In this document: piece by piece, positions 2,627-28,462 of the stretch
How positions within the stretch are numbered: the first letter of the stretch is position 1
Layout of the letters: every line of letters begins with the position of its first letter
Origin: a virus
Virus record (IMG/VR): IMGVR_UViG_3300046832_000578
DNA: 64,000 nucleotides
Reading direction: 5' to 3' (one strand)
Notes under the pieces: model-generated
What the model was told of the DNA's origin: nothing
The model's database searches: none
What the model saw: the letters and a program-made list of their open reading frames with translations, nothing else
Program-made: the position numbers and the translations under genes

Positions 2627-3133
2627 ATGGTAAGACAATTCATCCCCACAATTTTTGGTGAACACTTCAAAGACTTTGATAAGGTGTTCGTAGGTTTTGA
2701 CGACCAGTTCTCGAAGATGCAAAGTCTTCATGACGAACTAACCAAAAACATCCCTAACTATCCTCCATTCAATGTTCGTAAGAACGGTAATACCTACACG
2801 ATTGAAATCGCTGTAGCAGGTTTCGCACAAAACGAAATCGACATTACCATCGATGGTGGCAAACTAATCGTTAAGGGTAACTCTGAATCAAAAGATCCAG
2901 AAGATACTGATTACTTGTTCAAAGGTATTGGCATGCGTGCGTTTACTCGTGCATGGGCAATCGGTGACCAGTATGAAGTTAAAGATGCTGAACTGTTCAA
3001 TGGTGTTCTAAAGATTGCTCTTGATCAATTGATTCCAGAAACACAGAAAGCAAAAAAAGTTCCAGTGAAGACTAAAGGGCAAAAAGAATTCTTACGAGAG
3101 GACGCATATGACAAAGCTGCTGAAACTCTTTAA
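2627..3133 (+). CDS. hsp20: small heat-shock protein Hsp20 (IbpA-like)
   Basis: NYPPFNV, IEIAVAGF, FKGIGMRAFTR, AELFNGVLKI alpha-crystallin motifs. Confidence 0.93.
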   Translation: MVRQFIPTIFGEHFKDFDKVFVGFDDQFSKMQSLHDELTKNIPNYPPFNVRKNGNTYTIEIAVAGFAQNEIDITIDGGKLIVKGNSESKDPEDTDYLFKGIGMRAFTRAWAIGDQYEVKDAELFNGVLKIALDQLIPETQKAKKVPVKTKGQKEFLREDAYDKAAETL

Positions 3134-4988: not shown

Positions 4989-5332
4989 TTCTCGCTAAAG
5001 AGATCACTGTCTGGTCTACAGACTTTCAACCAAATCATACATATCTAATGAATGATTCGATGGATAAAATCATTGGGTATTTCAAATGGAACAATCCAAA
5101 AGACTTTACGAAGTTTAAGAATCCTCTAAGATTCGATACTCGTTATCGCAAATTCAAAATCCTCCAGCGTTATGAAGACAAAACAAATGCCAAGCGATGG
5201 AAGATTAATGGTAGTAAAGACCATGTGTATTATGTAGAAGAAACCGACAATGGAATGTCATGCACATGCATCGGTCACAAATATCATGGCAAGTGTAAAC
5301 ATATTGAACAGGTGAAGAATGAACATCAATAA
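4985..5332 (+). CDS. SWIM zinc-finger protein
   Basis: C-x-C-x8-C-K-H (CTCIGHKYHGKCKH). Confidence 0.75.
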   Translation: MILAKEITVWSTDFQPNHTYLMNDSMDKIIGYFKWNNPKDFTKFKNPLRFDTRYRKFKILQRYEDKTNAKRWKINGSKDHVYYVEETDNGMSCTCIGHKYHGKCKHIEQVKNEHQ

Positions 5333-6623
5333 ATTTTTAGATAGTCTAGCTGCGAATGCCTCACGCAATTTCAAGATCGACCAATTAAACGCACAGAGCG
5401 ATAACGAAACTCTGCGTGAGGTCATTCGTCTGGCTCTCGACCCATTTACGCAATTCTATCAGCGTAAGATCCCTCAGTATGTTACTGATTCTAAACAAAC
5501 CTCTTTGGAGAATGCACTTGGAGCACTTTATGATTTATCTTCTCGCACTGTTACAGGTAATGCAGCAATCGAATATCTACGCATGTTGCTCGCATCTTTA
5601 TCACCAGATGATGCTAAAGTTATCGAACGAATCATTCAGAAAGATCTGAAATGTGGTGTTGATGTATCCACTGCCAATAAAGTTTGGAGTGGATTAATTG
5701 CAGAGTATCCATGTATGTTATGCAGTCCATTCGAACAGAAGTTGGTTGACAAGATTAAGTTCCCAGCCTATGCTCAGATGAAGATGGATGGTATGCGATT
5801 CAATGCCATTGTTCGTGATGGTAAGGTAGAATTCCGTAGCAGAAATGGTAAACAGATTCATCTGTTGGGCAATCTGGAACAAGAATTTGCTACACTGGCA
5901 GGGAATATCGATTGTGTCTTTGATGGTGAGTTGTTGGTTATGCTTGAGGGTGATCATCAGTTTGCAGATCGTCAGACAGGTAATGGTATCCTTAACAAAG
6001 CAAACAAGGGTACAATTTCTGCTGAAGAAGCATCGATGGTACATGCATCTGTTTGGGATTTAATTCCGTATGTGATGTTTGAAGCAGGACAATGTTCAAC
6101 TCCATACTCAAAACGATTCTCGACTTTGGAACAGATTGTAAACAATCAGAAGTCAGATGGTAAAAAGATATGGACAGTATCATCTACAATTGTAGAAACA
6201 ATAGAACAAGCACAAGAGATCTTCCAAGAATACTTGTCTCTTGGTTACGAAGGTATCATCCTCAAAGATGGTAATGGTATCTGGGAAGACAAACGAAGCA
6301 AGACTCAGATTAAATTCAAAGGTGAATTGGAATGCGATCTGAAGATTGTTGCAGTTGAAGAAGGTAAAGGTAAGGCTACAGGAATGCTTGGTGCAATTAT
6401 CTGCGAGTCTGCAGATGGGATTGTAAAGGTAAATGTAGGATCTGGTTTCAATGATGCACAAAGAAAGCAATATTGGAAAGAAAATTTAGTTGACAAAATC
6501 GTGGCAGTGAAGTATAATGCTAGAATCAAAAACAAACAAGGTGAAGAGAGTCTGTTCCTACCTGTCTTTGTAGAAATCCGTGACGACAAAGATGTTGCAG
6601 ATTCTTCAAAAATTATTAAATGA
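5319..6623 (+). CDS. gp30: ATP-dependent DNA ligase (gp30)
   Basis: KMDGMR motif I, FDGEL, EGIILK, C-terminal OB fold SLFLPVF. Confidence 0.95.
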   Translation: MNINKFLDSLAANASRNFKIDQLNAQSDNETLREVIRLALDPFTQFYQRKIPQYVTDSKQTSLENALGALYDLSSRTVTGNAAIEYLRMLLASLSPDDAKVIERIIQKDLKCGVDVSTANKVWSGLIAEYPCMLCSPFEQKLVDKIKFPAYAQMKMDGMRFNAIVRDGKVEFRSRNGKQIHLLGNLEQEFATLAGNIDCVFDGELLVMLEGDHQFADRQTGNGILNKANKGTISAEEASMVHASVWDLIPYVMFEAGQCSTPYSKRFSTLEQIVNNQKSDGKKIWTVSSTIVETIEQAQEIFQEYLSLGYEGIILKDGNGIWEDKRSKTQIKFKGELECDLKIVAVEEGKGKATGMLGAIICESADGIVKVNVGSGFNDAQRKQYWKENLVDKIVAVKYNARIKNKQGEESLFLPVFVEIRDDKDVADSSKIIK

Positions 6624-8557: not shown

Positions 8558-9126
8558 TGTTTATGTTTGATGTAGAAACGCTGGGAGTAGAATCAACTTG
8601 TGTGATTCTCTCTGCAGCTATGGTTCATTTTGATCCAGAAAAGCGACCAACATATCAAGACTTGTTGGACAATTCATGTTTCGTAAAGTTTGATGTGAAG
8701 GAACAACTACAACTTGGAAGAACATCATCCAAGGGCACACTTGATTGGTGGAAAGGTCAACACGAATATGTTCGTAAGGTTTCTTTGGATCCATCTCGTG
8801 AAGATATGACTGTCGAAAATGGCTTGAATGCATTCTATAACTACATGAGTAAGTTTGCAAATGCTGATAAACAAACAATGTGGGCACGAGGTTCACTTGA
8901 TCAGATGGCGATTGATTCATTGGCAGTTAGAGTTGGCATGCAAGAAATTACAGGGTATAATGTATGGAGAGATGTCAGAACTGCAGTTGATATTCTCTAC
9001 GGCACTACAAATGGATATGTAGATGTAGATCATCCTTTGTTTAAGCGACATGAAGTCATCAAACATCATCCTGTTCACGACTGTGCACTTGATGCAATGC
9101 AACTAATGTATGGAAAAATAACTTAA
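8557..9126 (+). CDS. dexA: 3'-5' exonuclease, DEDDh family (DexA-like)
   Basis: FDVETLG ExoI, WARG..D, HHPVHDC ExoIII. Confidence 0.8.
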   Translation: MFMFDVETLGVESTCVILSAAMVHFDPEKRPTYQDLLDNSCFVKFDVKEQLQLGRTSSKGTLDWWKGQHEYVRKVSLDPSREDMTVENGLNAFYNYMSKFANADKQTMWARGSLDQMAIDSLAVRVGMQEITGYNVWRDVRTAVDILYGTTNGYVDVDHPLFKRHEVIKHHPVHDCALDAMQLMYGKIT

Positions 9127-11612
9127 TGGAATTTTACACAAGCGTCCATCCACTGGGCGATAAGATACTCGTTAGAGGGTACGATAAAGGAAGAGCATAT
9201 CAGCGTAAGGTAGATTTCTACCCTACGCTTTTTGTCACTTCTAAGAAGCAATCTAAGTGGAAGACTTTGGATGATACATATGTTGATGAAGTAAAACCTG
9301 GAACGATTAAAGATACAAGAGAGTTTGTCAAACGCTACGAAGATGTAGAAGGTTTTGCTGTGTATGGTAATACCAATTACGCATATCAATATATCAGCGA
9401 CACTTATCAAGACGATGTCAATTGGGACATGGAACAAATCAAAGTATTCACCATTGACATTGAGACTGCCACTGAGAATGGATTCCCAGATATCCGTAGT
9501 GCCAATGAAGAGATTCTTCTAATCACAATTAAGAATCTACAAACGAAAAACATTATCACCTTTGGCACTAAGCCATATGAAAACAAACGAGAAGATTGTC
9601 AGTATGTTTATTGTCGTGATGAACAACAACTACTAAAAGAGTTTATCATTTGGTGGCAACAGAACTATCCAGATTGTATCACTGGTTGGAATACAGACTT
9701 CTTTGATGTGCCATATCTTATCAAACGATTGGACAGAGAACTTGGTGATTCATTCTCCAAGAAAGTTAGTCCATGGGGTTACATCAATGAACGCAAGACA
9801 TTCATTAAAGGCAACGAAGAACTTCACTATGACATTCTAGGTATTTCTCAACTAGACTATCTCGAACTTTATAAAAAATATACATATACAAAGCAGGAGT
9901 CTTATCGTCTGGATTATATCGCACAAGAAGAACTTGGTGATAAGAAGAAAGAGAATCCAGGAACAGACTTTAAAGATTTCTATACAAACTATTGGGATAA
10001 GTTTGTTGAATATAACATTCACGATGTGGAGTTAGTTGATCAACTCGAAGACAAGATGCGTTTGATTGAACTGCATCTGACTATGGCATACAATGCTAAG
10101 ATTAATCCTGAAGATGTTTACTCACAAGTTCGTATGTGGGATACTATCATCTACAATCACCTGCGTAAGAAAGGTATTGTTATTCCAGCAAAGACTTCTT
10201 CAGGTAAAGATGCACAGTTCGAAGGTGCTTTCGTTAAAGATCCAATTATCGGTATGCATAAATGGGTAGCATCCTTTGACTTAAACAGTTTGTATCCGCA
10301 CTTGATTATGCAATACAACATTAGTCCTGAGACCCTGACCAGTGAGAAACTCTCTGTCACAGTTGATAAATTGCTTAATCAAGAAGTGGATACATCTTAT
10401 ATTAAACGAAGAGATCTAACTCTGACTGCAAATGGATGGACATATCGTAAAGACATCAAAGGTTTTATGCCTGAGTTGATGGAGCATATGTATGTTAATC
10501 GCTCCAAGTTTAAAAAACAGATGTTGAAAGTTGAACAAGAATACCAAAACGATAAGACAAAGGTTCATCTATTAAAAGATATTTCTCGTCTAAACAATCT
10601 GCAGATGGCGATGAAGATTGCTCTTAACTCTGCTTATGGTGCGATGGGTAATCAATACTTCCGTTACTTTGATATTCGTATGGCTGAAGGTATTACCACT
10701 TCTGGTCAGTTATCCATTCGTTGGATGGCAAACAAACTCAATGCATTCCTCAACAAAACTCTCAAGACAGAGGGTAAAGATTTCGTCATTGCCATTGATA
10801 CAGATTCGATCTATCTAACATTGGAAGATTTGATTGAGAAGGTTTGTGAAGGTAAAACTACTGAACAGAAAATCAAAACAATGGACAAGATCTGTGAAGA
10901 AGTTTTTCAACCATTTATTGATCAAGGATATGATGAACTTGCTGACTATATGAATGCGTATGGTCAGAAGATGCAAATGAAACGAGAAGTACTGGCTGAC
11001 AAAGCAATCTGGACTGCCAAGAAACGATATGTTATTAATGTTCATAATTCGGAAGGAGTGCAATTTGCGAAACCTAAAATCAAAGTTATGGGTTTGGAGA
11101 TGGTCAAGTCGTCTACACCTGCGGTTATTCGTGACAAACTTAGGGATTCGTTACAAGTTATTCTTGCTGGCGATCAAAAAGACCTACATACATATGTAAC
11201 AGCATTTAAGAAAGAGTTCGATAAACTTCCAGTGCATGAAGTAGCATTTCCTCGTGGTGTGAATGGTATGAAACAGTATGCTGGTTCTCCGATTTATACA
11301 AAGGGAACACCAATTCATGTTCGTGGTGCGTTGCTCTACAATCATCACTGTAAGCGTATGGGACTAGATAAAAAGTATCAACCAATTCGTGATGGTGATA
11401 AGATTAAGTTTGTTTATGTTCGTACACCAAACCCTCTGCAAGAAGATGTGATTGCTTTTAGTCAGCATCTTCCAAAAGAGTTTGGACTGGAAGCATACAT
11501 AGATTATGATAAACAATTTGAAAAAGTATTTCTTGATGCTCTACAGATTGTTATTCAACCACTAGGTTGGAAGACTCAAGAAGAAAGTTCATTGGAGGAT
11601 TTCTTTGGCTAA
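9126..11612 (+). CDS. gp43: family B DNA polymerase (gp43)
   Basis: DIET exonuclease, SFDLNSLYP, KIALNSAYG, IDTDS; C-terminal clamp-binding SLEDFFG. Confidence 0.97.
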   Translation: MEFYTSVHPLGDKILVRGYDKGRAYQRKVDFYPTLFVTSKKQSKWKTLDDTYVDEVKPGTIKDTREFVKRYEDVEGFAVYGNTNYAYQYISDTYQDDVNWDMEQIKVFTIDIETATENGFPDIRSANEEILLITIKNLQTKNIITFGTKPYENKREDCQYVYCRDEQQLLKEFIIWWQQNYPDCITGWNTDFFDVPYLIKRLDRELGDSFSKKVSPWGYINERKTFIKGNEELHYDILGISQLDYLELYKKYTYTKQESYRLDYIAQEELGDKKKENPGTDFKDFYTNYWDKFVEYNIHDVELVDQLEDKMRLIELHLTMAYNAKINPEDVYSQVRMWDTIIYNHLRKKGIVIPAKTSSGKDAQFEGAFVKDPIIGMHKWVASFDLNSLYPHLIMQYNISPETLTSEKLSVTVDKLLNQEVDTSYIKRRDLTLTANGWTYRKDIKGFMPELMEHMYVNRSKFKKQMLKVEQEYQNDKTKVHLLKDISRLNNLQMAMKIALNSAYGAMGNQYFRYFDIRMAEGITTSGQLSIRWMANKLNAFLNKTLKTEGKDFVIAIDTDSIYLTLEDLIEKVCEGKTTEQKIKTMDKICEEVFQPFIDQGYDELADYMNAYGQKMQMKREVLADKAIWTAKKRYVINVHNSEGVQFAKPKIKVMGLEMVKSSTPAVIRDKLRDSLQVILAGDQKDLHTYVTAFKKEFDKLPVHEVAFPRGVNGMKQYAGSPIYTKGTPIHVRGALLYNHHCKRMGLDKKYQPIRDGDKIKFVYVRTPNPLQEDVIAFSQHLPKEFGLEAYIDYDKQFEKVFLDALQIVIQPLGWKTQEESSLEDFFG

Positions 11613-12156
11613 TATCAGAGTAATTAAAAAAGGAATAAATGTATCCAAGATACTGAAACAATTACATCAGTATCCAGAGGATTGGGGTGCTCAGAAAAAC
11701 ATTGATGGTGTAGGAGATCTTGTAGACGATTGCGGATTCCCTGCAGTTGAAGCAGGTGTTCTACAGTTAGTCATGGGAGTTGTCTCATCTAAAGATCAGT
11801 ATGTGGGTGATAGTGAGATGTCTGCATCAACACCTGCATATAGTCATCATACAGAAATTATTTCATTCTTAAAGAGACACTTCAAGAAATTTGATAGGTG
11901 TGGATTCTTATCATTACCCATTGCTGGTGTCGTTGGTCAACATATTGATATTGGATCTTACTATCAAACACGAGATAGATATCATCTTGCAATTCAAGGT
12001 GCATATGATTATACAGTTGGAGGAGAGACTGTAAGAGTAGAAGAAGGTGACTTGATTTGGTTTGATAATAAACAATCACATGGAACAAAGAATGTTGGAG
12101 ATGCTGTAAGAATTACATTTGTGTTTGATGTTCCGCATGCCAAGAACAATCCATAA
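11605..12156 (+). CDS. 2OG-Fe(II) cupin oxygenase (aspartyl/asparaginyl beta-hydroxylase-like)
   Basis: HID...RYHL...WFDNKQSH...RITFVFD. Confidence 0.75.
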   Translation: MANIRVIKKGINVSKILKQLHQYPEDWGAQKNIDGVGDLVDDCGFPAVEAGVLQLVMGVVSSKDQYVGDSEMSASTPAYSHHTEIISFLKRHFKKFDRCGFLSLPIAGVVGQHIDIGSYYQTRDRYHLAIQGAYDYTVGGETVRVEEGDLIWFDNKQSHGTKNVGDAVRITFVFDVPHAKNNP

Positions 12157-12196: not shown

Positions 12197-12448
12197 ATGA
12201 AAGTTTTAAAATTTTATGCCGACTGGTGTGGTCCATGCAAAGCATTGACAAGAATTATTGAAATCGCTGGAGAGAAAGTTACAATCCCAGTTGAAAATGT
12301 AAACATTGATGAGAACATTTTTCTTGCACAAGAGTTTAAAGTTCGTTCAGTTCCGACTATGATATTGGTTGATGATACTGAAAATGAAATTAAACGACAT
12401 GTCGGTTTAGTGAATGAAGAGAAATTATTAGAATTCCTGAAAGGTTAA
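12197..12448 (+). CDS. trx: thioredoxin
   Basis: FYADWCGPCK, VRSVPT. Confidence 0.92.
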   Translation: MKVLKFYADWCGPCKALTRIIEIAGEKVTIPVENVNIDENIFLAQEFKVRSVPTMILVDDTENEIKRHVGLVNEEKLLEFLKG

Positions 12449-12449
12449 T

Positions 12450-13523
12450 ATGAGCATACTAGACAAAATTAAAAAGAATACAACAATCAAAGATTCAGCA
12501 ATTCTTGCTCAATCAAAATTCTTCGCTAAGAAGGACATGATTCCAACCTCAGTACCAATTATCAATGTGGCTTTATCTGGTCGTCTTGATGGTGGATTAG
12601 TTCCAGGATTGACGATGTGGGCTGGTCCAAGCAAGCACTTTAAAACTGCTTTCTCTTTGCTTATGGCAAAATCTTATTTGGACAAGTATGAAGATGCAGC
12701 GTTATTGTTTTATGATTCTGAATTTGGTACTCCTCAGTCTTACTTTGATACCTTTGGTATTGATACTAAGCGAGTGCTTCACACTCCTGTTACAGATGTT
12801 GAACAACTCAAGTTTGATATCATGCAGCAACTGTCAACCATCGAGCGTGGAGATCACCTCATTATCGTCATTGATTCGATAGGAAATCTCGCTTCCAAGA
12901 AAGAAGTAGAGGATGCATTGGACCAGAAAGCAGTTGCTGATATGAGTCGTGCAAAGCAGATGAAGAGTTTGTTCCGTATGGTTACACCTCATTTGTCCAT
13001 GAAAGATATTCCACTTGTTGTAGTGAATCATACATATAAAGAGATTGGTCTTTATCCTAAAGACATCGTTGGTGGTGGTACTGGTTCTTACTACTCAGCG
13101 GACAACATCTTTATTCTTGGTCGTCAGCAAGAGAAAGATGGAACTGAATTAACAGGTTACAATTTTATTATTAATGTTGAGAAGAGTCGTTATGTTAAAG
13201 AAAAATCTAAGATACCTGTTAGCGTATCTTTTGATGGTGGTCTTAGTAAGTGGAGCGGTTTGCTTGATATTGCTCTTGAGTCCAAACATGTGGTCAAACC
13301 ATCCAATGGTTGGTATTCCAAATGTGATCCAGTTACAGGAGAAGTAGAAGAAAAGAAATATCGTTTGAAAGATACTGACACTAAAGAGTTCTGGTTACCA
13401 CTTCTTACAGATAAAACATTTTATGACTATGTCAAGAACAAATATTCAATGGGTCAGGGTGATATGATTAGAGCAGATGAGTTGGATAAGGCACTTGAGG
13501 AATTGGAATTCGATGAAGAGTAA
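12450..13523 (+). CDS. uvsX: RecA-like recombinase UvsX
   Basis: AGPSKHFKT, YDSEFG, DSIGNLAS, GGTGSYYSAD. Confidence 0.95.
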   Translation: MSILDKIKKNTTIKDSAILAQSKFFAKKDMIPTSVPIINVALSGRLDGGLVPGLTMWAGPSKHFKTAFSLLMAKSYLDKYEDAALLFYDSEFGTPQSYFDTFGIDTKRVLHTPVTDVEQLKFDIMQQLSTIERGDHLIIVIDSIGNLASKKEVEDALDQKAVADMSRAKQMKSLFRMVTPHLSMKDIPLVVVNHTYKEIGLYPKDIVGGGTGSYYSADNIFILGRQQEKDGTELTGYNFIINVEKSRYVKEKSKIPVSVSFDGGLSKWSGLLDIALESKHVVKPSNGWYSKCDPVTGEVEEKKYRLKDTDTKEFWLPLLTDKTFYDYVKNKYSMGQGDMIRADELDKALEELEFDEE

Positions 13524-13845
13524 TTTACCCATAATTGTTACAGAAAACAAACACAATGGACTTCAAGCAATTAAATTGACAGAAGGTGCATTTGAGGGTA
13601 TAATTTATACCTATGGGAAAGTTAGTATTGATGCAGATGAAGAGAATGATAAGATTCATCTAAAATTTGAATATGAAATTCTTGATTATGCGGATAAAGG
13701 GTTGACAGACATGAAACCTTTTGAAGCATACATAGGTAAGATACTTGAAGGATTAATCCACGAGGGTGTCGAAGAAAATAATTTAACATACACAGGCGGA
13801 GTTGATGAGAATAGAACAGAAGATTCTAAGCAATCTGATACATGA
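13513..13845 (+). CDS. conserved protein between uvsX and helicase (T4 gp40 position)
   Basis: synteny uvsX-X-gp41; IIYTYGKV motif. Confidence 0.6.
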   Translation: MKSNLPIIVTENKHNGLQAIKLTEGAFEGIIYTYGKVSIDADEENDKIHLKFEYEILDYADKGLTDMKPFEAYIGKILEGLIHEGVEENNLTYTGGVDENRTEDSKQSDT

Positions 13846-15193
13846 TGAGCATTATTGTCGTAAGGTAATTCCGTTTCTAAAGAAAGAGTATTTCACAGAT
13901 CGTAAAGAAGCAATCCTTACAAGTGAGATTGTTTCCTTCTTCACAAAATACAACAAACCTGCAACAAAAGAAATTCTATCTATTGAAGTTGGAAATAGAA
14001 AAGATCTTAATGACAAAGAGTTAGTTGAACTTGCCGATTATATCGGTAGTTTAAATCATGAGCCAGTTAATGAAGACTGGATGCTAGAAAACACTGAGAA
14101 GTTTTGTAAAGATAGAGCGGTTTATAATGCGATCCTTAATTCAATTAGTATCATCGATGGGCGAGACAAAATTCATACTAAAGATGCGATACCTAGCATC
14201 CTTAGCGATGCACTCGCTGTTTCTTTTGATAATCACATCGGTCATGACTATCTGGATGACCACCTTTCGAGGTTTGATTTTTATCACAGGGTTGAAGAGA
14301 AAATTCCTTTCGACCTTGACATGTTCAACAAAATCACCAAAGGTGGACTCTCAAAGAAAACCTTAAACATCGCACTTGCTGGCACTGGTGTTGGTAAGTC
14401 ATTGTTCATGTGTCACATGAGTGCTGGTTGTTTGACACAAGGTAAAAATGTTTTATACATAACTATGGAAATGGCAGAAGAAAGAATCGCTGAGAGGATT
14501 GATGCGAATCTCTTGAACCTTACCATGGATGAATTGAAAGTTATTGATAAGGATATCTTTGAATCTCGTATCGCAAAGATTACAAGTAAGACTAAAGGTA
14601 AACTAATTGTCAAAGAATATCCAACTGCAAGTGCTCACTCTGGGCACTTTCGTGCATTGCTGGAAGAATTAAAACTGAAACGAGACTTTAGACCTGATAT
14701 AATCTTCATTGATTATCTTAACATCTGTGCGAGTCAGCGAATGAAGCAAGGTGGAAGTATTAACTCTTATACATATATTAAGGCAATCGCAGAAGAGTTG
14801 AGAGGTTTGGCAGTAGAGTATAATGTGCCAATCGTTTCAGCAACTCAAACAACTCGTTCTGGGTATACAAATTCAGATCCAGGACTAGAAGATACGAGTG
14901 AATCATTTGGTTTGCCAGCGACCGCTGACTTCATGTTTGCTTTGGTCAGCAATGAAGAATTAGAAGCGTTAAATCAAATCCTTGTAAAACAATTAAAGAA
15001 TCGTTACAACGATCCTAGTTTTTACAAACGATTTGTGATTGGAATTGATAGAGCAAAGATGAAATTGTATGACACAGAAGCATCTGCTCAAGTTAATATA
15101 AGTGACTCTGGTCAAGATGATGAGCCAGTGTTTGATAAGAGTAGTTTTGGTCGCAGACAAAAAGCAGAATCATTCGAGGGATTTAAGTTTTAG
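13805..15193 (+). CDS. gp41: replicative DNA helicase (gp41, DnaB-like)
   Basis: LAGTGVGKSL, IFIDYLN, SATQTTRSG, SESFGLPATAD. Confidence 0.96.
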   Translation: MRIEQKILSNLIHDEHYCRKVIPFLKKEYFTDRKEAILTSEIVSFFTKYNKPATKEILSIEVGNRKDLNDKELVELADYIGSLNHEPVNEDWMLENTEKFCKDRAVYNAILNSISIIDGRDKIHTKDAIPSILSDALAVSFDNHIGHDYLDDHLSRFDFYHRVEEKIPFDLDMFNKITKGGLSKKTLNIALAGTGVGKSLFMCHMSAGCLTQGKNVLYITMEMAEERIAERIDANLLNLTMDELKVIDKDIFESRIAKITSKTKGKLIVKEYPTASAHSGHFRALLEELKLKRDFRPDIIFIDYLNICASQRMKQGGSINSYTYIKAIAEELRGLAVEYNVPIVSATQTTRSGYTNSDPGLEDTSESFGLPATADFMFALVSNEELEALNQILVKQLKNRYNDPSFYKRFVIGIDRAKMKLYDTEASAQVNISDSGQDDEPVFDKSSFGRRQKAESFEGFKF

Positions 15194-15202
15194 GAGAAAG
15201 AT

Positions 15203-16516
15203 ATGGTAAAAGTTATTGTAGCAAAACAGAAACATGATATGACTCATATGTTGGGACAGTTCCCTGATGAGTCGCATTATGATCATCTTATCGAGGAAGA
15301 TACAGATGTATACATGCCAGAGATTCCAGGACATCCAGAGATGACATTCTCTGAAGAGAGGATTGTTCTGAAGTTTCGTAAGAATTATTTTACAAAAGAA
15401 CAACAAGACCAAGCATACATTGGACTTCGTGAAGCTGCAACTGAGACGCAGAATCGTGGACTTGCAGCTGGACCAAGAGCAGAGAAGTTAGGTAATCGTG
15501 AATGGGTCACTGAGTATGAATATGACATCGTTGATTACTTCAGTAATCCCAAAGCCAATCTATTTGGTGAAGATCCAATTGAAGCAATTCGTCAGGCACA
15601 TAAGAACAAGAAGCCATCTCCGTCTAATCGTAATAATGTTTGGGGTATTTCTACTGTAAAGAAAGACAACTTCGTCTTTGAAGACTGGGTTGAAGCAACA
15701 AGAAAACTTTCTGAGAATGAAATGCGTGCAGAAGCAAAACGAGTTGCTGAGAAATATATCTGTGCAACAACCTATGCCAATGGTGTGTTCTCTGGTATTG
15801 CTGGATGGTTCGATCGTTATCCTCGCATTCCTTATGGTCGTGCAACATCTTATACTGCGAATCATCCAGACAAATTTGCTATGGCGTATCCATTCCTACA
15901 GCAACTTGCACAGGGTTTTAAAGATCTGTTGCCATGGAGATATGGTAATCAGATGGAAGCAGCAAATAAAATGGATCCTCGTTTCTTAGTTCCAGAAACT
16001 CCATTCACTACTGTCACTGTGAATAGATCTTTTAGAACTGCGTGTCACTTTGATGCAGGTGACCTAACTTCTGGTCTATCAAATCTACTGACATTATCAA
16101 ACAATGGTAATTATCGTGGTTGCCATCTTGTTGCACCAGAGTATCGTGTCGCAGTAAATCCCAGACCTGGAGATCTACTTTTGATTAACAATCATGAAGT
16201 AATGCATGGTAATACTCAGATTGAATTGCTTGATGATGTGGCAGAGAGAATTTCATTGGTTGTGTACTTCCGTGAGAAGATGCTTGAGTTAGGATCTAAA
16301 GAGTATGAAGATTGTCGTTTTGACTTTGTTGAATCTCGCAGACTTAATAAAGAACATCCAGAACAACGACCATTGTGGAATGGTGTATCACCATCAATGT
16401 GGGATTCTAAAGAATGGTTTGATTATCTAGAATCAAAACTAGGTACAGAAGTATTGAACAAGTATCATCCACCAAAGACTACAACTGTTAATGCACTCGA
16501 GGAGTTCTTCGGATAA
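15203..16516 (+). CDS. TET/JBP-family 2OG-Fe(II) dioxygenase
   Basis: FTTVTVN..FRTACHFDAGD (HxD), HEVMHGNT, RISLVVYFRE. Confidence 0.82.
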   Translation: MVKVIVAKQKHDMTHMLGQFPDESHYDHLIEEDTDVYMPEIPGHPEMTFSEERIVLKFRKNYFTKEQQDQAYIGLREAATETQNRGLAAGPRAEKLGNREWVTEYEYDIVDYFSNPKANLFGEDPIEAIRQAHKNKKPSPSNRNNVWGISTVKKDNFVFEDWVEATRKLSENEMRAEAKRVAEKYICATTYANGVFSGIAGWFDRYPRIPYGRATSYTANHPDKFAMAYPFLQQLAQGFKDLLPWRYGNQMEAANKMDPRFLVPETPFTTVTVNRSFRTACHFDAGDLTSGLSNLLTLSNNGNYRGCHLVAPEYRVAVNPRPGDLLLINNHEVMHGNTQIELLDDVAERISLVVYFREKMLELGSKEYEDCRFDFVESRRLNKEHPEQRPLWNGVSPSMWDSKEWFDYLESKLGTEVLNKYHPPKTTTVNALEEFFG

Positions 16517-17211
16517 TGTGTGCCGTAATTGGAACAATCATTCAGAATCCTTCAACAAAGGATTTTGAAAATCTACTTCGTGTATTCCATGAGTCTAAGA
16601 TTCGTGGAATGCATGCTACAGGAATCTCATATGTTAAGCATGGTAAAATCCATACTGAGAAACACCCAGTGCCAGCTAATAATTTTCCTTTTGATTTGCC
16701 AGCGTATGTCAATGAAGATGGAAATCTATACCTTATTGGGCACTGCCGTTATAGCACTAGCGATCTTGAGTATAATCAGCCAATTGCTAATGATAATCTC
16801 TCAGTAGTTCACAATGGTGTTATTACTCAAGAACTACCAGAGAAATGGAAAGAGTTGTATGGTTATGATTGTGAAACTAAAAACGATACAGAATTAATCC
16901 TACACACAGCAGAAAATTGCATCTCTCCGTTAGTTCGTTGGAAAGATTCTAGTCTTGCAGTTTGCGAGTTGCATGTTGATAGAGTTATTCGTGCATATCG
17001 CAATGGCAAGCGTCCATTATATTTGACAACTTTCAACAATGGATGTATAATTACCTCTACTGAAAATATTCCTGCACGAGCAGGTATTGAAGGATTTACA
17101 ACTGAGTTACCTTTGAACACTTATATAACTTTTGATGATGCATTGGCTATGATGGTTGAAAAAGAAACGATAGCTGACGCAGTGGATTTCCAACACTATG
17201 AACTTTGTTAA
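16516..17211 (+). CDS. class II (Ntn) glutamine amidotransferase
   Basis: N-terminal Cys (MCAVIG), RG.HATG, GHCRYST, HNG, NDTE. Confidence 0.85.
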   Translation: MCAVIGTIIQNPSTKDFENLLRVFHESKIRGMHATGISYVKHGKIHTEKHPVPANNFPFDLPAYVNEDGNLYLIGHCRYSTSDLEYNQPIANDNLSVVHNGVITQELPEKWKELYGYDCETKNDTELILHTAENCISPLVRWKDSSLAVCELHVDRVIRAYRNGKRPLYLTTFNNGCIITSTENIPARAGIEGFTTELPLNTYITFDDALAMMVEKETIADAVDFQHYELC

Positions 17212-17839
17212 TTCTACAAGAGTAGAAGAACTAATTAAAAACAGTCCAGCTGGTAAGAACACCAAGTTCTTATCGGCTGCACACTCATTGTGGTATCGCT
17301 TTCATAATTATGACAAAGCACCACCGATGACATATGAAGTAAATGGTGAAGTTGTATCTCTTATCTTTGCCACATTCAATCGTGACAACTACTCAAATCT
17401 ATACGAAATCGTTACAATTGAAGGACATGAAGGTAAAGGATATGCATCCAAGTGTTGGGATGCATGGATTGATTATGCAGTCAAAGAAAGAAAGATGACT
17501 CGATTGAAAATGTCCTGCACACCATCATCTGTTACATGGCACTATAAGAATGGTTTGATTTGGTGGGCAGTAGATCCAACAGGTTCACTTCGCTCTGATC
17601 AACCATTATTCCCAACAAGAGTAGAACAGATTGCTTATCGAGATTATGCTATTGTGAATCCACTTCAAGCACTACCACCATACAAAGCAAGAGAACAATT
17701 TCGATTAGAGGGATTAGAATCCTACAAGTGGGGTGAGAAAAAGAAAGCAAAAAGCCAAGCAGCAATTGATGCAGTGGGTAAGGCATGGTTAAGAGAAGCA
17801 CTAATGGAACAACCCTCTTTAGAAGAATTTTTAGTATAA
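17198..17839 (+). CDS. GNAT-fold acyltransferase
   Basis: EGHEGKGYAS acetyl-CoA motif A; WHYKNG motif B. Confidence 0.65.
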   Translation: MNFVNSTRVEELIKNSPAGKNTKFLSAAHSLWYRFHNYDKAPPMTYEVNGEVVSLIFATFNRDNYSNLYEIVTIEGHEGKGYASKCWDAWIDYAVKERKMTRLKMSCTPSSVTWHYKNGLIWWAVDPTGSLRSDQPLFPTRVEQIAYRDYAIVNPLQALPPYKAREQFRLEGLESYKWGEKKKAKSQAAIDAVGKAWLREALMEQPSLEEFLV

Positions 17840-18858
17840 TGGATTATCGTTTGCAAGAAAATCGTAAGGAAGCATTCATTCGCTGGTATGCTTGGTCGTT
17901 GAAGTATGATGACTGCGATCCTGCTGTATGGGCAACAAACTATCTGAACAATCGTTATGAACATAATGATGAGCAGAAGTTGTGGTTGTGTTGGTTGTAT
18001 GGTAATACATACTATCTTCCAACTGCATGGATTCTTATGAACGAGTTTCCAGACTTTGAGTTAGCCACTGTAGATCGTATGACACAATGGAACACTACAA
18101 ACTATAAACGATTAAGATACCAAACAGATACAAAGTGGAACAAAGGACACCTCCCTACCATGTTCGCTTCTTACCAACAATTTGTGGGAGACAAAACACA
18201 GAGAGAAAGGTTAGAAGAATATTATGGACGCAATGAAGAAGAGAACTTTAATAACCTGTGGACAGGCATTAAGTCTGGGTTGCATAAGTTTGGTCGTTAT
18301 TCCACTTGGTTTTATCTTCAGCATCTTAAGCATACTGCTGGTGTCCATATCAATCCTACTTCTCTCATGTTGGATGATTATGATGGCTCTCGCTCTCATC
18401 GTAATGGATTGCTTTATGCCGTTGGACAGGAAGACTTTGTGGATAGAAAACTCACTGGAGGACATTATAGCAACCTTGAAGCACAAGCGTACGAGATTCT
18501 TTGCGAGACGAAAGCGAGATTTCCAGAACTAATTGATCAGATAGATTACTTTACCATGGAAACTTGTTTGTGTTCTTTTAAGAAGATCTTTAGAGCACAT
18601 CATGGTCGTTATCTTGGATACTATCTTGATAGACAGGCAGAAGAAATTATGCAGTGTGAGAAGGATGGATGGTATGGTATTGATTGGGATGTTTTGTGGC
18701 AATCACGAGAAGAAACTATCGACTTGAGATTAGACCACAGAAGAGGAATTGATAAAGAAAGATTTTCTAGTTTTATTAATACAGGAAGACTAGAGAATTT
18801 AGAGTGGATGTTTGATGATGAGCAACCTATATTAAATGGATTGGAGATTTTTGCATGA
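17839..18858 (+). CDS. amino acid:DNA transferase (alpha-glutamyl/putrescinyl-thymine pyrophosphorylase clade-2-like)
   Basis: DCDP, WLYGNTY, HKFGRYSTWFYLQ, METCLCSFKK, RYLGYYLDR helix-hairpin-helix glycosylase-like motifs. Confidence 0.75.
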   Translation: MDYRLQENRKEAFIRWYAWSLKYDDCDPAVWATNYLNNRYEHNDEQKLWLCWLYGNTYYLPTAWILMNEFPDFELATVDRMTQWNTTNYKRLRYQTDTKWNKGHLPTMFASYQQFVGDKTQRERLEEYYGRNEEENFNNLWTGIKSGLHKFGRYSTWFYLQHLKHTAGVHINPTSLMLDDYDGSRSHRNGLLYAVGQEDFVDRKLTGGHYSNLEAQAYEILCETKARFPELIDQIDYFTMETCLCSFKKIFRAHHGRYLGYYLDRQAEEIMQCEKDGWYGIDWDVLWQSREETIDLRLDHRRGIDKERFSSFINTGRLENLEWMFDDEQPILNGLEIFA

Positions 18859-19250
18859 GTTTAACAACGACAAGTTCTGTTTCTTTACCAGTAAGCATTA
18901 GTGATATGACCACTGGGAGTATAACTATATCAAACACCAGTGGTAGTTATGGAACCATTGCCATGGGTGTAATAACCGATGACTTACTAGACAAGTATGA
19001 GTTTAATAAACTAACTGTTGATCATAAAGTATCAGCACATGAACTCTTAAAGTTAAAAGATACTGTTCCAACTTATGCAGACGAGATTAAAGAAAACCTT
19101 GCTAAGAATGCATCAAGAGAATTGGTAAAGAAGATTACCTTTACAAAGAAACATGATGTTGACTCTGATGTGCATCACTTTATTGGAAGAGTCTGGGTAT
19201 TTACAGAGGAAGAACTAAGAAAACTTATTGAGGAAGTGAAACATGCTTAA
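18855..19250 (+). CDS. hypothetical protein
   Basis: coupled ORF inside the modification cluster. Confidence 0.6.
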   Translation: MSLTTTSSVSLPVSISDMTTGSITISNTSGSYGTIAMGVITDDLLDKYEFNKLTVDHKVSAHELLKLKDTVPTYADEIKENLAKNASRELVKKITFTKKHDVDSDVHHFIGRVWVFTEEELRKLIEEVKHA

Positions 19251-19851
19251 AGAAATTGTAGGAACAACTGATCAAATTTCAATTCAGATTATTCGTGGAG
19301 AACCACAGGTGCGTAAACTAATCGCTGTGGGTGGTCAACCTGGAACTGGTAAAACCACTCTATTCCGTAAGTTTATGGAGAAGTATCAATGGGAGAAAGT
19401 CGAACCTAAAAAGATGCTTCCTGCTCTATATTGTAAAGAACTAGACCTATACATTCTAGGTAAGTATGATGATGGAGAAACCTTTGCTGGTACAGATCGT
19501 CTAAGTATGGCTGTTCAACCAGTGGCACAGGAGTTTGTTAGAGAGACCACCTCCAATATTCTATTCGAGGGAGACCGAATCTTTAATCAGTCCTTCCTAG
19601 AGTTTGCAATGGGACTTCCTAATACAGATCTTCAGGTAATTTACCTTAAAGTTCCAGATGCTATGCTAAAAGAACGCTATGCAGAACGAGGATCCGACCA
19701 ATCTGAGACTTTCCTAAAAGGTCGTGCGACTAAATATAGTAATATATTGTCTAATTTTGAACTGATGCCCTACATTACAGAGTTCGTTAATACTAACTTA
19801 GAGGAGCAGGGAAAGGTTTTGAGTTTCTTGGAAGGACATTTCAAGAGATAA
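19243..19851 (+). CDS. P-loop nucleotide kinase associated with the DNA modification cluster
   Basis: GGQPGTGKTT Walker A, GTDRLSM, LFEGDR, ERGSDQ. Confidence 0.8.
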   Translation: MLKEIVGTTDQISIQIIRGEPQVRKLIAVGGQPGTGKTTLFRKFMEKYQWEKVEPKKMLPALYCKELDLYILGKYDDGETFAGTDRLSMAVQPVAQEFVRETTSNILFEGDRIFNQSFLEFAMGLPNTDLQVIYLKVPDAMLKERYAERGSDQSETFLKGRATKYSNILSNFELMPYITEFVNTNLEEQGKVLSFLEGHFKR

Positions 19852-25180: not shown

Positions 25181-28100
25181 ATGAAAGATTACAAACAACT
25201 AATCAAAGAACTACCTGCAAAGTCCGTAGTTTTCGCATTCGGGAGATTTAATCCCCCAACTATCGGACACGAACTGTTAGTCAAAGCTGTTAAGAAATTG
25301 GCTCAGCAAAGAAACGCTGACCATGTAATCTATGCATCTAGGTCACAAGATGCTAAAAAGAATCCCCTATCTGTAGAGAAAAAGGTTAAGTATCTTAAGC
25401 TGATGTTTAAGAGCACTAACTTTGCTGCAGCCAATGATCAAGAAAGAACCTTCATTGAAGCAGCAAAGGCACTGAATAAGAAGTATAAGAACATTATTAT
25501 GATTGCTGGTTCAGATCGTATTGCTGAATTTAAACGATTGTTAAATACCTATAACGGTAAAGATTTTAATTTCGATACCATTGAAGTTGTATCTGCAGGT
25601 GAAAGAGATCCTGATGCGGATGACGCTACAGGTATGTCTGCATCTAAGATGCGTAGTCTTGCTGTTAAAGGTAGCTACTCAGAATTTAAGAAAGGTTTAC
25701 CTTCCACTGTCCGTGACATTGATGGTAAACGATTGATGAATGACATTCGTGATGGTATGGGTCTTGAACCCATCAAAGAACAGATTGTTCTTGTTAAAGA
25801 TGAACTTCGTGAGAAGTTTTTTCGTGGAGAGATCTTTAATGAGGGAGATATTGTAGAGTCCGCTGGCGAAAGATTTACTATCGTTAAGCGTGGTTCAAAT
25901 CATTTACTACTAAAAGAAGCATCTGGAAACCTAGTATCAAAGTGGATTCAAGATGTTCAACCAACAGAAGAAAAAGAAGATATGAACGAAGAACTTACAG
26001 ATAAAACATTAAGACCGACTGATAAGATTAAAGTCGCTCGTATTATCGCAACCATGCTTGGTGTTGATAATGCAGAGACATCATCTAATCCAGAGAATCT
26101 TATCAATCAAGCACTGCGCAAAGTTCGCACGAAGGCACTTAATCCAGAAGCACTTCATATCCTCGATAAAATGCTTAATCTTGCCACAGAGCAAGGTATT
26201 CAATACGATGCTACATTAAAACCATCTAAGTTAAAAGAAGGTGTAACGCAGATTGGTGGCACAGATAAGATTGAGACAACTACAGATTCAGTTGTTGTGA
26301 ATAAGAACAGTAAGTATAATATTGCAAAAGATATTCTTCGTTTCAATGACTTTAAAAAACTACAAAAGATGAATTCTGTTAAAGAGGAAGAAGAAATAAA
26401 AACTCCAGGACAGACAAATCAAATTGGTGGCACATTAACATCAAGTGATACTTCAGATAATCTTCGTCGTCGCAAGATTAAATATCATTTAGGCGAACAG
26501 AATAAACCTCCTCATGTAGACATGTCTGCATATGAAGATGAATCTGCACATGAGAATACTGTTGATCATATTATTAGCAGTCCAGAACATACTGAAAAAC
26601 AAAAGAAATTAGCAAAATTATTTATCGATAAACTTCGTAGTGTCACTGAGCAAGATGATAGTGCAGCAAAAGAAACTGCCAAAGCAAATCTAATGGCTAA
26701 ACATGCCAGAGAAAAACAATCTCTTGCCGATAAACAGACTAGAGAAAAAGAATCATTAAAAGAAGAACATATTGTTCATGTTGATGATGGTAGTAACTAT
26801 GGTGACAAACCACATCCTAAAGATGTAGAGCATGTCAATGCTGGAGTTAAAAAACATGGTGGTGAATTTGATGGGCATTCAGACAAAGGTGCTTACTTTA
26901 AATTTAACTCTAAGTCAGACGCTAAAAACTTTGCTGATCATGTTAAAAAATCACCACATAAATCTGTTTATGCAGACCTACATGAAGAAGTTCAATTAGA
27001 AGAAGCGACTGTTAAGACTCAAAAGTATTCATGGGGAACTATGAAAACTGTTCATCATGGTGCTGACTTCTCTATTCCTCTGCACCCAGAACATCACCAA
27101 GCAATCGCAAAGTTAAAAGATGAGCAGGAGCATAAGTTTAAAACTGAAGATGGAAAACATTGGACTGCTCGTCGTAAAGGCGATGAAGTTCATTTCCAAG
27201 GTGCTAACAATGGTGGTTCTACTAAAGTTAAACACGCTGATCTAAAAGAAGAAGTACAAATCTGCGAAACAGCAGACGCTGGTCTTGCTGCCAAAGCAGA
27301 GAAGTCAGGTGTTTCAATTGGTACACTACGTAAAGTATACAAGCGTGGTGTTGCTGCTTGGAACTCTGGTCATCGTCCAGGAACTACTCCACAGCAGTGG
27401 GGTATGGCTCGTGTAAACTCTTACATCACTAAAGGTAAGGGAACATATCATGGTGCTGATAAAGATCTACGTGAAGAAGAAATTCAAGAGAACAATCTAC
27501 CTGAAGTTCCAAAACATAAAGAGTCTGGTCTTCCAAAGAAGTATGTAGCTGGATTGTCTGACGCAACTGCAAAGGCACGTGCTGCTCATTTCGATAAAGC
27601 CGATAAGTTGTCAGATAAAGATCCTGAAGCATATAAACCAGCACCTGGAGATGCAACTGCTAAAACTAAGCCAAGCAAACATACATTAAAGTATCGTGCC
27701 ATGTTCGGTGAAGACATGTGCGAAGAATTGTATGAAGCATGTTGGGATACTCACAAGCAAGTTGGTATGAAGAAGAAAGGTAATCGTATGGTTCCTGACT
27801 GTGTACCAAAGAACGAGGAAGCAGAAGTTTGTCCAGTTTGTAATAAAAGTCCATGTGAGTGTGATAAACCAAGTGCTGGTCCAGTAACAACAGACAAACC
27901 ATTTGATGCATTCTTTAAAGAAGATGAAGATGAGTTTGACTTTCCAGAACCATCTGATGACGAGATTGAAAGTATGGCAGATGAATTATCAGATGATGAT
28001 TACCTAGACACTTATGAAGAAGATGAACTAGGCATTGTTGATGATGAGACTGGAGAAGAATTACCAGAAGATGAAGAGGAAGAAAAGAAACTCAAAGAAT

Positions 28101-28462
28101 CTGCTCTGATGGAAGTACTATCCCGCATCGAACGAATGAAAGCCAAAGCAAGAATTCGTCGCACATCAGCAAAACGTGAACGAGCAACCAAGATTGCATT
28201 AAAGCGTTATTCAAATACTGCTACAATTAACAAACGAGCACGCAGACTTGCAATTAAACTAATGAAGAAAAGATTGCTTCGTGGTAGAGATCCATCAAAG
28301 GTTTCTGTTGGCGAAAAAGAAAGAATCGAAAGAACATTAGAAAAAAGAAAAGCAGTTATTGGTCGTATTGCCACTCGCTTAGCACCTCGTGTTCGTAAAG
28401 TAGAAAAAGCAAGATTGTCTCATACAAAATACACTCAAGGGAGCCAGCCAAGTGTCTTTTAA
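25181..28462 (+). CDS. large multidomain protein with N-terminal HIGH-type cytidylyl/nucleotidyltransferase domain
   Basis: FGRFNPPTIGH, AGSDR, SAGERDPD, MSASKMR; acidic and basic C-terminal tracts. Confidence 0.8.
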   Translation: MKDYKQLIKELPAKSVVFAFGRFNPPTIGHELLVKAVKKLAQQRNADHVIYASRSQDAKKNPLSVEKKVKYLKLMFKSTNFAAANDQERTFIEAAKALNKKYKNIIMIAGSDRIAEFKRLLNTYNGKDFNFDTIEVVSAGERDPDADDATGMSASKMRSLAVKGSYSEFKKGLPSTVRDIDGKRLMNDIRDGMGLEPIKEQIVLVKDELREKFFRGEIFNEGDIVESAGERFTIVKRGSNHLLLKEASGNLVSKWIQDVQPTEEKEDMNEELTDKTLRPTDKIKVARIIATMLGVDNAETSSNPENLINQALRKVRTKALNPEALHILDKMLNLATEQGIQYDATLKPSKLKEGVTQIGGTDKIETTTDSVVVNKNSKYNIAKDILRFNDFKKLQKMNSVKEEEEIKTPGQTNQIGGTLTSSDTSDNLRRRKIKYHLGEQNKPPHVDMSAYEDESAHENTVDHIISSPEHTEKQKKLAKLFIDKLRSVTEQDDSAAKETAKANLMAKHAREKQSLADKQTREKESLKEEHIVHVDDGSNYGDKPHPKDVEHVNAGVKKHGGEFDGHSDKGAYFKFNSKSDAKNFADHVKKSPHKSVYADLHEEVQLEEATVKTQKYSWGTMKTVHHGADFSIPLHPEHHQAIAKLKDEQEHKFKTEDGKHWTARRKGDEVHFQGANNGGSTKVKHADLKEEVQICETADAGLAAKAEKSGVSIGTLRKVYKRGVAAWNSGHRPGTTPQQWGMARVNSYITKGKGTYHGADKDLREEEIQENNLPEVPKHKESGLPKKYVAGLSDATAKARAAHFDKADKLSDKDPEAYKPAPGDATAKTKPSKHTLKYRAMFGEDMCEELYEACWDTHKQVGMKKKGNRMVPDCVPKNEEAEVCPVCNKSPCECDKPSAGPVTTDKPFDAFFKEDEDEFDFPEPSDDEIESMADELSDDDYLDTYEEDELGIVDDETGEELPEDEEEEKKLKESALMEVLSRIERMKAKARIRRTSAKRERATKIALKRYSNTATINKRARRLAIKLMKKRLLRGRDPSKVSVGEKERIERTLEKRKAVIGRIATRLAPRVRKVEKARLSHTKYTQGSQPSVF

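Follow-up and report, generated by a model that had tools for sequence, protein, structure and literature searches.

Thymidine hypermodifications shield the DNA of phages against restriction and other nucleases, and their pathways supply enzymes able to rewrite bases within polymeric DNA. The described systems closest to the one discussed here are metavirome clusters with TET/JBP-family 5mYOX enzymes of clade C1, which are linked to GATase, kinase and amino acid:DNA transferase (AADT) genes (PMC13229309). The GATases are listed in such clusters with their function called unknown (PMC8989533, section 'Global occurrence'), and the oxidation of thymine by phage 5mYOXs has been shown experimentally (PMC13229309). 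In phage PaMx11, gp48, which is a GNAT, acetylates 5-aminomethyl-deoxyuridine (5-aminomethyl-dU, 5-NmdU) to 5-acetylaminomethyl-dU (5-AcNmdU; PMC8989533). Here we consider a cluster in a stretch of 64,000 nucleotides (the window) from the virus record IMGVR_UViG_3300046832_000578 of IMG/VR, in which a TET/JBP dioxygenase (TET), a stand-alone glutaminase (GAT), a GNAT, an AADT and a DNA kinase are encoded side by side.

This type of cluster is published (Lee 2021; O'Toole 2026), while its product and the role of its glutaminase are not given in that literature. The idea of a TET enzyme in place of a hydroxymethylase is also already published, since the same gene set is drawn in PMC13229309 and in Lee et al. 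2021. We lean towards reading the present locus as an operon for the post-replicative hypermodification of thymidine in a T4-like phage, comprising TET, the kinase, a GAT-fed AADT and the GNAT, recruited by the sliding clamp; every one of its steps is one that we infer.

The operon and its predicted pathway

The cluster consists of six + strand open reading frames (ORFs) that are joined by stop/start overlaps and lie directly 3' of a DnaB-like helicase gene:

15203-16516, + strand: TET/JBP dioxygenase (437 aa; Pfam Tet_JBP, 4.6e-25)
16516-17211, + strand: stand-alone class II (Ntn) glutaminase, GAT (231 aa; GATase_6/GATase_7)
17198-17839, + strand: GNAT-family N-acyltransferase (213 aa; Acetyltransf_1)
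17785-18858 as ORF (357 aa), corrected to 17839-18858 (339 aa), + strand: AADT (aGPT-Pplase2; ADDT, 1.3e-19)
18855-19250, + strand: o131, a 131-aa protein with no family match
19243-19851, + strand: 5-hydroxymethyluracil DNA kinase of the P-loop nucleotide kinase 3 family (202 aa; Ploopntkinase3, 2.3e-11)

All five domain assignments exceed the curated cut-offs of Pfam (gathering scores): 88.2 bits against 34.9 for Tet_JBP (PF12851), 40.9 against 27 for GATase_6, 26.8 bits against 20.7 for Acetyltransf_1 (GNAT, PF00583), 71.3 bits against 26.2 for ADDT (PF18724) and 44 bits against 27 for Ploopntkinase3 (PF18751). They bear out the five families named in a sequence-only reading of the window. 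That reading had also described five coupled genes after the helicase; the gene directly upstream is indeed DnaB and the overlaps are real, but the ORFs are six, o131 having been missed. The probable true start of AADT is at 17839 (MDYRL...), with a 1-nt overlap with the GNAT stop codon. This start is the most likely one because the homologues begin there, several of them with an in-frame stop upstream.

To place the cluster among its relatives, IMG/VR was searched with GAT, which gave 79 loci onto which the window proteins were mapped. The order DnaB-TET-GAT-GNAT-AADT-o131-kinase is found in most of these loci, on dozens of contigs with 45-100% protein identity, and the constant core consists of TET, GAT, AADT and the kinase. 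Since the gene order recurs across IMG/VR contigs, this is a conserved operon and not a chance juxtaposition.

In the pathway that we propose, the TET/JBP enzyme (a 5mYOX) would first hydroxylate thymine in DNA to 5-hydroxymethyluracil (5hmU), and the P-loop kinase would then phosphorylate the hydroxyl to give 5-PmdU. Next, Cys245 of AADT, helped by Glu241, would attack C6 and expel the phosphate, leaving an exocyclic methylene. GAT, docked on AADT, would hydrolyse glutamine and pass on the ammonia as the nucleophile, following a PurF-like logic, to yield 5-aminomethyl-dU. Finally, the GNAT would acylate the amine, most simply to 5-acetylaminomethyl-dU. The site of action would be a gp45-type sliding clamp just behind the fork, which possibly stands in for the ParB activator.

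The glutaminase and its predicted complex with AADT

The N-terminus of GAT is MCAVIG, and none of 19 sequences deviates at residues C2, R30, R78, T81, N100, G101 or D124. We take this set (Cys/Arg/Asn-Gly/Asp) to be the one of the PurF/GlmS glutaminases. In NCBIfam, GAT matches best to the N-terminal domains of AsnB, PurF and GlmS, and a PDB sequence search returned marginal GlmS matches only. PaP3-like phages have longer GAT-II proteins beside amidoligases, and the window GAT is only distantly related to these (24-28% identity). GAT has no acceptor (synthase) domain in cis, and AADT is predicted to be its acceptor in trans. In AADT, E241 and C245 (METCLC) are invariant, also in the GAT-less AADTs of Cr30, ViI-like phages and Montesquieu, and their counterparts in M6 gp51 and ViI gp247 are an essential Glu/Cys pair (PMC8989533).

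A complex between the two proteins is predicted with ipSAE scores of 0.90, 0.91 and 0.90 in three runs, compared to 0.00 for the best of three controls. At least 96% of the contacts are common to the runs, and the predicted local distance difference test score (pLDDT) of the partner is at least 89. The input consisted of our own alignments (A2 for AADT and A1 for GAT), with which the calibration of the tool, where the mark was reached by 58 of 80 solved complexes and by 2 of 110 mismatched pairs, counts only roughly. A PDB sequence search with AADT found neither a relative of AADT nor a similar complex and, as no such relative was returned, recall of a solved complex is unlikely.

On the GAT side, the predicted interface is made up of the active-site face (residues 1, 28-33, 79-81 and 101-102), the invariant GKRP (164-167), TST (181-184) and a D-L-Q motif in the otherwise variable C-terminus. 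Invariant GAT residues are enriched there (18/30 compared to 30/201, p = 4e-7), and the enrichment persists when the catalytic residues are removed (p = 9e-6). The AADT contact motifs RYEHNDE, NEFPD and WYGIDW are invariant in GAT-linked AADTs and not conserved in GAT-less ones.

A search for longer AADT relatives gave nine natural proteins of 608-646 aa (P0007-P0015) with a GATase domain at the N-terminus and an ADDT domain at the C-terminus, eight of which start with MCG. The window GAT is 29% identical to residues 1-210 of P0007 (E = 7e-23). Two of the fusions are found in contigs of PolA-type phages, immediately followed by 5hmU DNA kinase genes and a gene of the Thymidylat_synt family, with neither TET nor GNAT in the cluster. 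From these natural fusions it follows that the unit of GAT and AADT occurs as two separate proteins in TET-type clusters and as a single fused one in those of the hydroxymethylase type. In a tree of AADTs, the split and the fused GAT-linked proteins form two strong clades apart from the ViI-like AADTs; Cr30 sits on a long branch, and an exclusive sisterhood of the two clades is hence not demonstrable.

In PurF, ammonia displaces pyrophosphate, and the domain order is glutaminase first and transferase second. For AADTs, it is known that outside nucleophiles can capture the intermediate (PMC8989533). Given the predicted complex, the fusions, their PurF-like order and the acceptance of outside nucleophiles by AADT, the exchange of phosphate for ammonia to give 5-aminomethyl-dU is the most economical reading, and GAT looks like an ammonia-donating subunit of AADT, as predicted by the model of the complex. 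The suggestion in the sequence-only reading that the glutaminase supplies ammonia is supported, as a prediction, by the invariant catalytic set, the predicted complex and the fusions.

Oxidation, acylation and clamp-type tails

We now consider the two outer steps of the pathway, starting with the oxidation. The HxD...H iron triad of TET (H282, D284 and H335) and the 2-oxoglutarate-binding R349 are invariant in 17 aligned homologues. The AlphaFold2 model has a pLDDT of 82, and its top Foldseek matches, with E-values of 1e-9 to 1e-7, are CcTet, human TET2, NgTET1 and CMD1, so that the fold is of the TET type; a PDB sequence search with TET gave nothing meaningful. Many TET orthologues carry a Cys-rich insert near the N-terminus (C..C..CxxC, probably a zinc site), seen at columns of about 45-70 of alignment A4 in L053, L055, L056, L061, L063, L067, L080 and L081; the window TET has no such insert.

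The choice of substrate is judged from the genes for nucleotide supply, two of which are:

34761-35441, + strand: ThyX, flavin-dependent thymidylate synthase (Thy1, 1.2e-46)
54175-54624, + strand: dCMP deaminase, which would feed dUMP to ThyX (dCMP_cyt_deam_1, 2.8e-22)

A ribonucleotide reductase is also encoded in the window, and from these three genes together ordinary dTTP is expected to be made. For genes that might be missing, the genome of the window is represented by a complete relative, G002 (163.6 kb, CheckV 100% complete), which carries the same operon at 66-86% protein identity. Profile searches found no Thymidylat_synt match (PF00303, the family of ThyA-like hydroxymethylases) in G002, no C5 DNA methylase (PF00145) in G002 or among the window ORFs scanned, and no ParB_N (PF02195) in these ORFs, in G001 or in G002. 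Because ThyX and dCMP deaminase are present while G002 is without hydroxymethylase, C5-methyltransferase and ParB, thymine in DNA is the likely substrate. TET is thus likely to be an enzyme that would oxidise T to 5hmU in DNA, with its specificity for T taken from the gene context. Clusters without methyltransferase or hydroxymethylase genes have likewise been read as thymine-dioxygenase clusters (PMC8989533, PMC13229309). The sequence-only reading was correct about ThyX, and its proposal of a TET/JBP enzyme instead of a dUMP hydroxymethylase agrees with the results for G002 as well as with this literature.

At the other end of the pathway, the GNAT contains a CoA-loop-like motif, HEGKGYA, and it is plausible, by analogy with PaMx11 gp48, that it acylates the new primary amine, as the sequence-only reading had it. 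The analogy is one of function: tblastn with the window GNAT gave no match in the phage collection, where gp48 should be present, and hence no sequence link. The likely product, on the same analogy, would be 5-aminomethyl-dU and then 5-acetylaminomethyl-dU, with masses of 257 u for 5-NmdU and 299 u for 5-AcNmdU (PMC8989533). The latter is already proposed as the base of PaMx11, where it is reached by another route. No FAD oxidoreductase (glycinylthymine lyase) came up in the scanned ORFs of the window or in the cluster itself, so that 5-AcNmdU would here be formed without the detour over glycine and an FAD lyase. The 'uncharacterised base' of the sequence-only reading may therefore, from the gp48 analogy, be a known base if the GNAT is an acetyltransferase, and it is the route to it that would be new.

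In about 20 of the related loci, the place of the 213-aa GNAT is taken by an Amidoligase_2-like protein together with a different GNAT (Acetyltransf_10), for example at L053:8727-10147, L080:2975-5452 and L057:8122-9532. In some of them, a low-molecular-weight phosphatase (LMWPc) or a GT1 glycosyltransferase is encoded as well. It is likely that the final bases differ within one phage lineage. GNATs and amidoligases are both amide-forming enzymes, and since they alternate downstream of GAT, a primary-amine intermediate would fit both.

It is important to point out that several of these enzymes end like the DNA polymerase. The window polymerase can be aligned to T4 gp43 (PDB 9e5y) up to the last residue, with its terminal SLEDFFG opposite SLDFLFG of T4. 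TET ends with ALEEFFG, GNAT with SLEEFLV and AADT with GLEIFA. This tail of T4 gp43 is known as its clamp-interaction tail. Conservation of the tail is seen in 77 homologues for TET and in 47 for GNAT; it is kept in orthologues down to 44-56% identity although the preceding residues vary, and it is present on the alternative GNATs too. In the AlphaFold2 model of TET the tail is disordered (residues 426-437, pLDDT below 50). GAT, the amidoligases, o131 and the fused AADTs of PolA-type phages do not have it. In G002, the motif [STAG]LE.F[FLA] occurs within the last 8 residues of 4 of the 215 ORFs, namely the polymerase, TET, GNAT and AADT, compared to 0.007 given by shuffles. G002 also encodes a homologue of gp45 (E = 2e-27 to T4 gp45), the gp45 gene of the relative being located at L087:1480-2151 on the - strand. 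Separately, we note that an 83-aa thioredoxin-domain protein of the window (phrog_22, 12197-12448) ends with LLEFLKG, which is similar to the clamp-type tail.

As they share the C-terminal tail of the DNA polymerase, TET, GNAT and AADT are probably recruited by the gp45-type sliding clamp, and these DNA-acting enzymes are, as far as their C-termini indicate, candidate clamp clients. ParB is itself a DNA-sliding clamp. Published clusters with the same gene set depend on ParB, which is absent here, and the gp45 clamp may consequently take over the role of this activator. An association of this kind is known for T4 alpha-glucosyltransferase, which binds gp45 (PMC13216743; Sommer et al. 2004). Taken to its end, this leads to a clamp-riding assembly line, in which the gp45-type clamp replaces ParB and brings together a thymine dioxygenase, a 'DNA amidotransferase' that depends on glutamine and has two subunits (GAT and AADT), and an N-acyltransferase, which would convert thymine into an acylaminomethyl base behind the fork. 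We offer this full version tentatively, as somewhat less probable than not.

Weighing of the pathway and its alternatives

A number of points weigh against the pathway as proposed. What AADT acts on, which acyl donor GNAT uses and whether TET prefers T are all inferred from gene context. The predicted complex and the fusions would imply that GAT and AADT act jointly, which is also compatible with a transfer of glutamine or glutamate itself. Class II GATase folds that stand alone, EgtC for example, are as a rule amidohydrolases. On the AADT side of the predicted interface, the enrichment of conserved residues is not significant (p = 0.06). As for the tails, the strict motif was defined post hoc from the four proteins, and a looser pattern, [LI][ED].F, is found in 8 ORFs of G002 compared to 0.9 expected. 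The additional ORFs are RNase H, two structural proteins (tail-sheath stabiliser and head-tail adaptor) and one unknown, and since structural proteins are also matched, only the stricter motif is specific. Finally, ParB-less clade C1 enzymes were inactive when assayed in E. coli (PMC8256090, PMC13229309). This inactivity would be explained if the clamp indeed replaces ParB.

The amidohydrolase activity of related folds leads to a different division of labour between the two proteins. AADT could attach glutamine or a gamma-glutamyl compound to the methyl group of thymine, and the Ntn protein could then act like EgtC and trim the adduct on the DNA, which would result in alpha-glutamylthymine or in an unmasked amine that is subsequently capped by the GNAT. 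Stand-alone GATase folds of class II are often hydrolases, the Arg78/Asp124 pocket recognises a gamma-glutamyl moiety regardless of the group attached to it, and two consecutive enzymes would be just as likely to form a complex or to be fused. Moreover, alpha-glutamylthymine exists in phage SP10 (PMC8989533). However, tblastn with GAT (E < 1e-3) matched no record of a Bacillus phage, Bacillus being the host genus of SP10, so that no GAT homologue is seen in SP10. The predicted interface buries the active-site face of GAT on AADT, which agrees better with a channel than with an enzyme that has to reach a base in duplex DNA, and GAT is without the clamp-type tail that is borne by the enzymes that must contact DNA. 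In addition, glutamate is plentiful in cells, making a glutaminase unnecessary, and an amide nitrogen is a poor nucleophile. We consider this trimming scenario rather unlikely.

Another option is that AADT uses a free amino acid or a polyamine, as in M6, ViI and PhiW-14, and that the GNAT acetylates a distal amine, with GAT serving another purpose such as the making of a small-molecule substrate or the amidation of a carboxylate of the adduct. All characterised AADTs do use free glycine, serine or putrescine (PMC8989533), and in related loci GAT is located beside an Amidoligase_2 protein, similarly to the GAT-amidoligase sets of PaP3-like phages. Against this, GAT is intact in the window even though no amidoligase or other synthase partner is found there, and its constant partners across the loci are TET, AADT and the kinase. 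In other phages it is fused to AADT, in clusters that otherwise contain only kinases and a gene of the thymidylate-synthase family, and the interface motifs of AADT are conserved in GAT-linked AADTs only. A free nucleophile is for these reasons an unlikely choice.

That the dioxygenase acts on 5-methylcytosine (5mC) and the pathway hypermodifies cytosine is very improbable: phage TETs of clades A and B do oxidise 5mC, and for some contigs it has been suggested that a kinase acts on 5hmC (PMC8256090), and the solved folds nearest to the window TET are 5mC enzymes, but no C5-methyltransferase is found among the window ORFs scanned or anywhere in G002, the kinase and AADT belong to the families that serve in 5hmU pathways, and methyltransferase-less clusters are taken in the literature as thymine-dioxygenase clusters (PMC13229309).

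Returning to the supply of ammonia by GAT, as far as the literature searched shows, and leaving Iyer et al. 2013 aside, no precedent was found for a GATase as the ammonia-donating subunit of AADT, for natural GAT-AADT fusions, or for clamp-type tails where ParB is absent. If GAT feeds AADT, this would be a new type of reaction, the glutamine-dependent amination of a DNA base, with ammonia from glutamine as a new class of AADT nucleophile. It would also provide a one-step enzymatic route to 5-aminomethyl-dU in DNA, a useful chemical handle, and explain a whole set of metavirome clusters. The assignment is specific and cheap to test. The clamp-type tails, in turn, offer a concrete explanation for the activation of ParB-less thymine dioxygenases and suggest why heterologous assays failed.

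Neighbouring genes, relatives and known systems

All genes of the window are on the + strand, and its replication module is of the T4 type:

22-948, + strand: clamp-loader subunit
5319-6623, + strand: ATP-dependent ligase
9126-11612, + strand: family B DNA polymerase, T4 gp43-like (Pfam DNA_pol_B; C-terminal end SLEDFFG)
12450-13523, + strand: UvsX
13802-15193, + strand: DnaB-like replicative helicase (Pfam DnaB_C; phrog_19, 2e-129)
17023-17051, + strand: perfect TTGACA-17-TATAAT promoter-like site in the 3' part of the GAT gene, upstream of GNAT and AADT

Five perfect TTGACA-17-TATAAT sites are found on the + strand of the window (6490, 13576, 17023, 54693 and 59687) and none on the - strand; one of them precedes DnaB. 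A site resembling the one at 17023, which overlaps conserved codons, is present in 52 of 74 GAT orthologues. At the DNA level, the cluster matched none of 50,697 phage records. The end of the polymerase gene is overlapped by a gene for a 183-aa cupin or Asp-Arg-hydroxylase-like protein (phrog_32420, 11605-12156), a second oxygenase-like gene near the cluster. Auxiliary genes of the window encode a 1093-aa protein with cytidylyltransferase-like and DUF5824 domains (25181-28462), a fatty-acid-desaturase-like protein (38900-39604), Hsp20 (2627-3133) and a protein similar to the N-terminal part of biotin-protein ligase (57575-58312).

Within the operon, the translation of the kinase contains the Walker A motif GGQPGTGKTT. 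For o131, no Pfam, PHROG or NCBIfam match was found and the protein atlas scores are below 0.9; the pLDDT of its AlphaFold2 model is only 50, which makes the model unfit for a fold search. Its N-terminal 40-50 residues are hypervariable and rich in Ser, Thr and Gly, and its C-terminal part of about 90 aa is conserved and helical (alignment A5). It is an accessory protein, missing from several related clusters. A conserved ORF of 238 aa is located 3' of the kinase in T4-like contexts only.

Some related clusters, among them L061, L065 and L074, contain inserted ORFs of 430-515 aa. These were considered as possible enzymes of the pathway, and of the two scanned, the one of L061 (428 aa, L061:10173-11459) has a homing-endonuclease match in PHROGs. 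The operon may thus be a target of mobile endonucleases. The inserted ORF of L065 (515 aa) has PHROGs matches limited to families of unknown function. In some relatives, insertions of about 600 bp separate TET from GAT or GNAT from AADT (L006:2399-3004, L004:2423-3151).

A cultured, T4-like relative is the Caulobacter phage Cr30 (L001, KF301602.1 50555-63568), whose TET, annotated as 'SNF2 DNA repair protein', is 46% identical to that of the window. An AADT gene lies 2 kb from TET and a kinase gene 4 kb beyond it, and there is no GAT. Cr30 is a possible cultured model of hypermodification initiated by TET.

Among the known systems, the clade C1 5mYOX metavirome clusters (Lee 2021, PMC8989533, Fig. 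2 sequences 22-25; O'Toole 2026, PMC13229309, Fig. 3) are the most similar in gene content. They have the same Pfam set as the window, namely PF12851 for TET/JBP, PF13522/PF13537 for the GATase, PF18751 for the kinase and PF18724 for AADT, and they too have no dUMP hydroxymethylase and no C5-methyltransferase. In both cases 5hmU is taken to be produced in situ by the dioxygenase and passed to the enzymes downstream. However, the published subclass with this gene set is ParB-dependent, whereas no ParB match is found here in the window ORFs scanned, G001 and G002, and in contrast to the published descriptions TET, GNAT and AADT bear the clamp-binding-type tail of the polymerase.

With PaMx11 (gp46 AADT, gp47 FAD lyase, gp48 GNAT and gp49 kinase; PMC8989533), the cluster has the kinase, AADT and GNAT in common, and it would also share 5-aminomethyl-dU as the acceptor of the acetyltransferase and likely the end product. 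The routes differ, as PaMx11 obtains its 5hmU from a hydroxymethylase and its amine by attachment of glycine followed by oxidative cleavage by the FAD enzyme, while the window has a glutaminase and no FAD enzyme was found.

GAT shares with PurF, GlmS and AsnB an N-terminal Cys as the nucleophile along with the Arg, Asn-Gly and Asp residues. As in PurF, a (pyro)phosphate leaving group would be displaced by ammonia, and the fused relatives share the order with the glutaminase first. Unlike in these enzymes, the acceptor domain is AADT, acting on a base in polymeric DNA, and the two halves are separate proteins.

Finally, T4 alpha-glucosyltransferase is likewise a post-replicative DNA-modifying enzyme of a T4-type phage that is tied to the sliding clamp. 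The difference is that here three enzymes of one pathway carry the polymerase-like C-terminal peptide, through which they would putatively bind the clamp.

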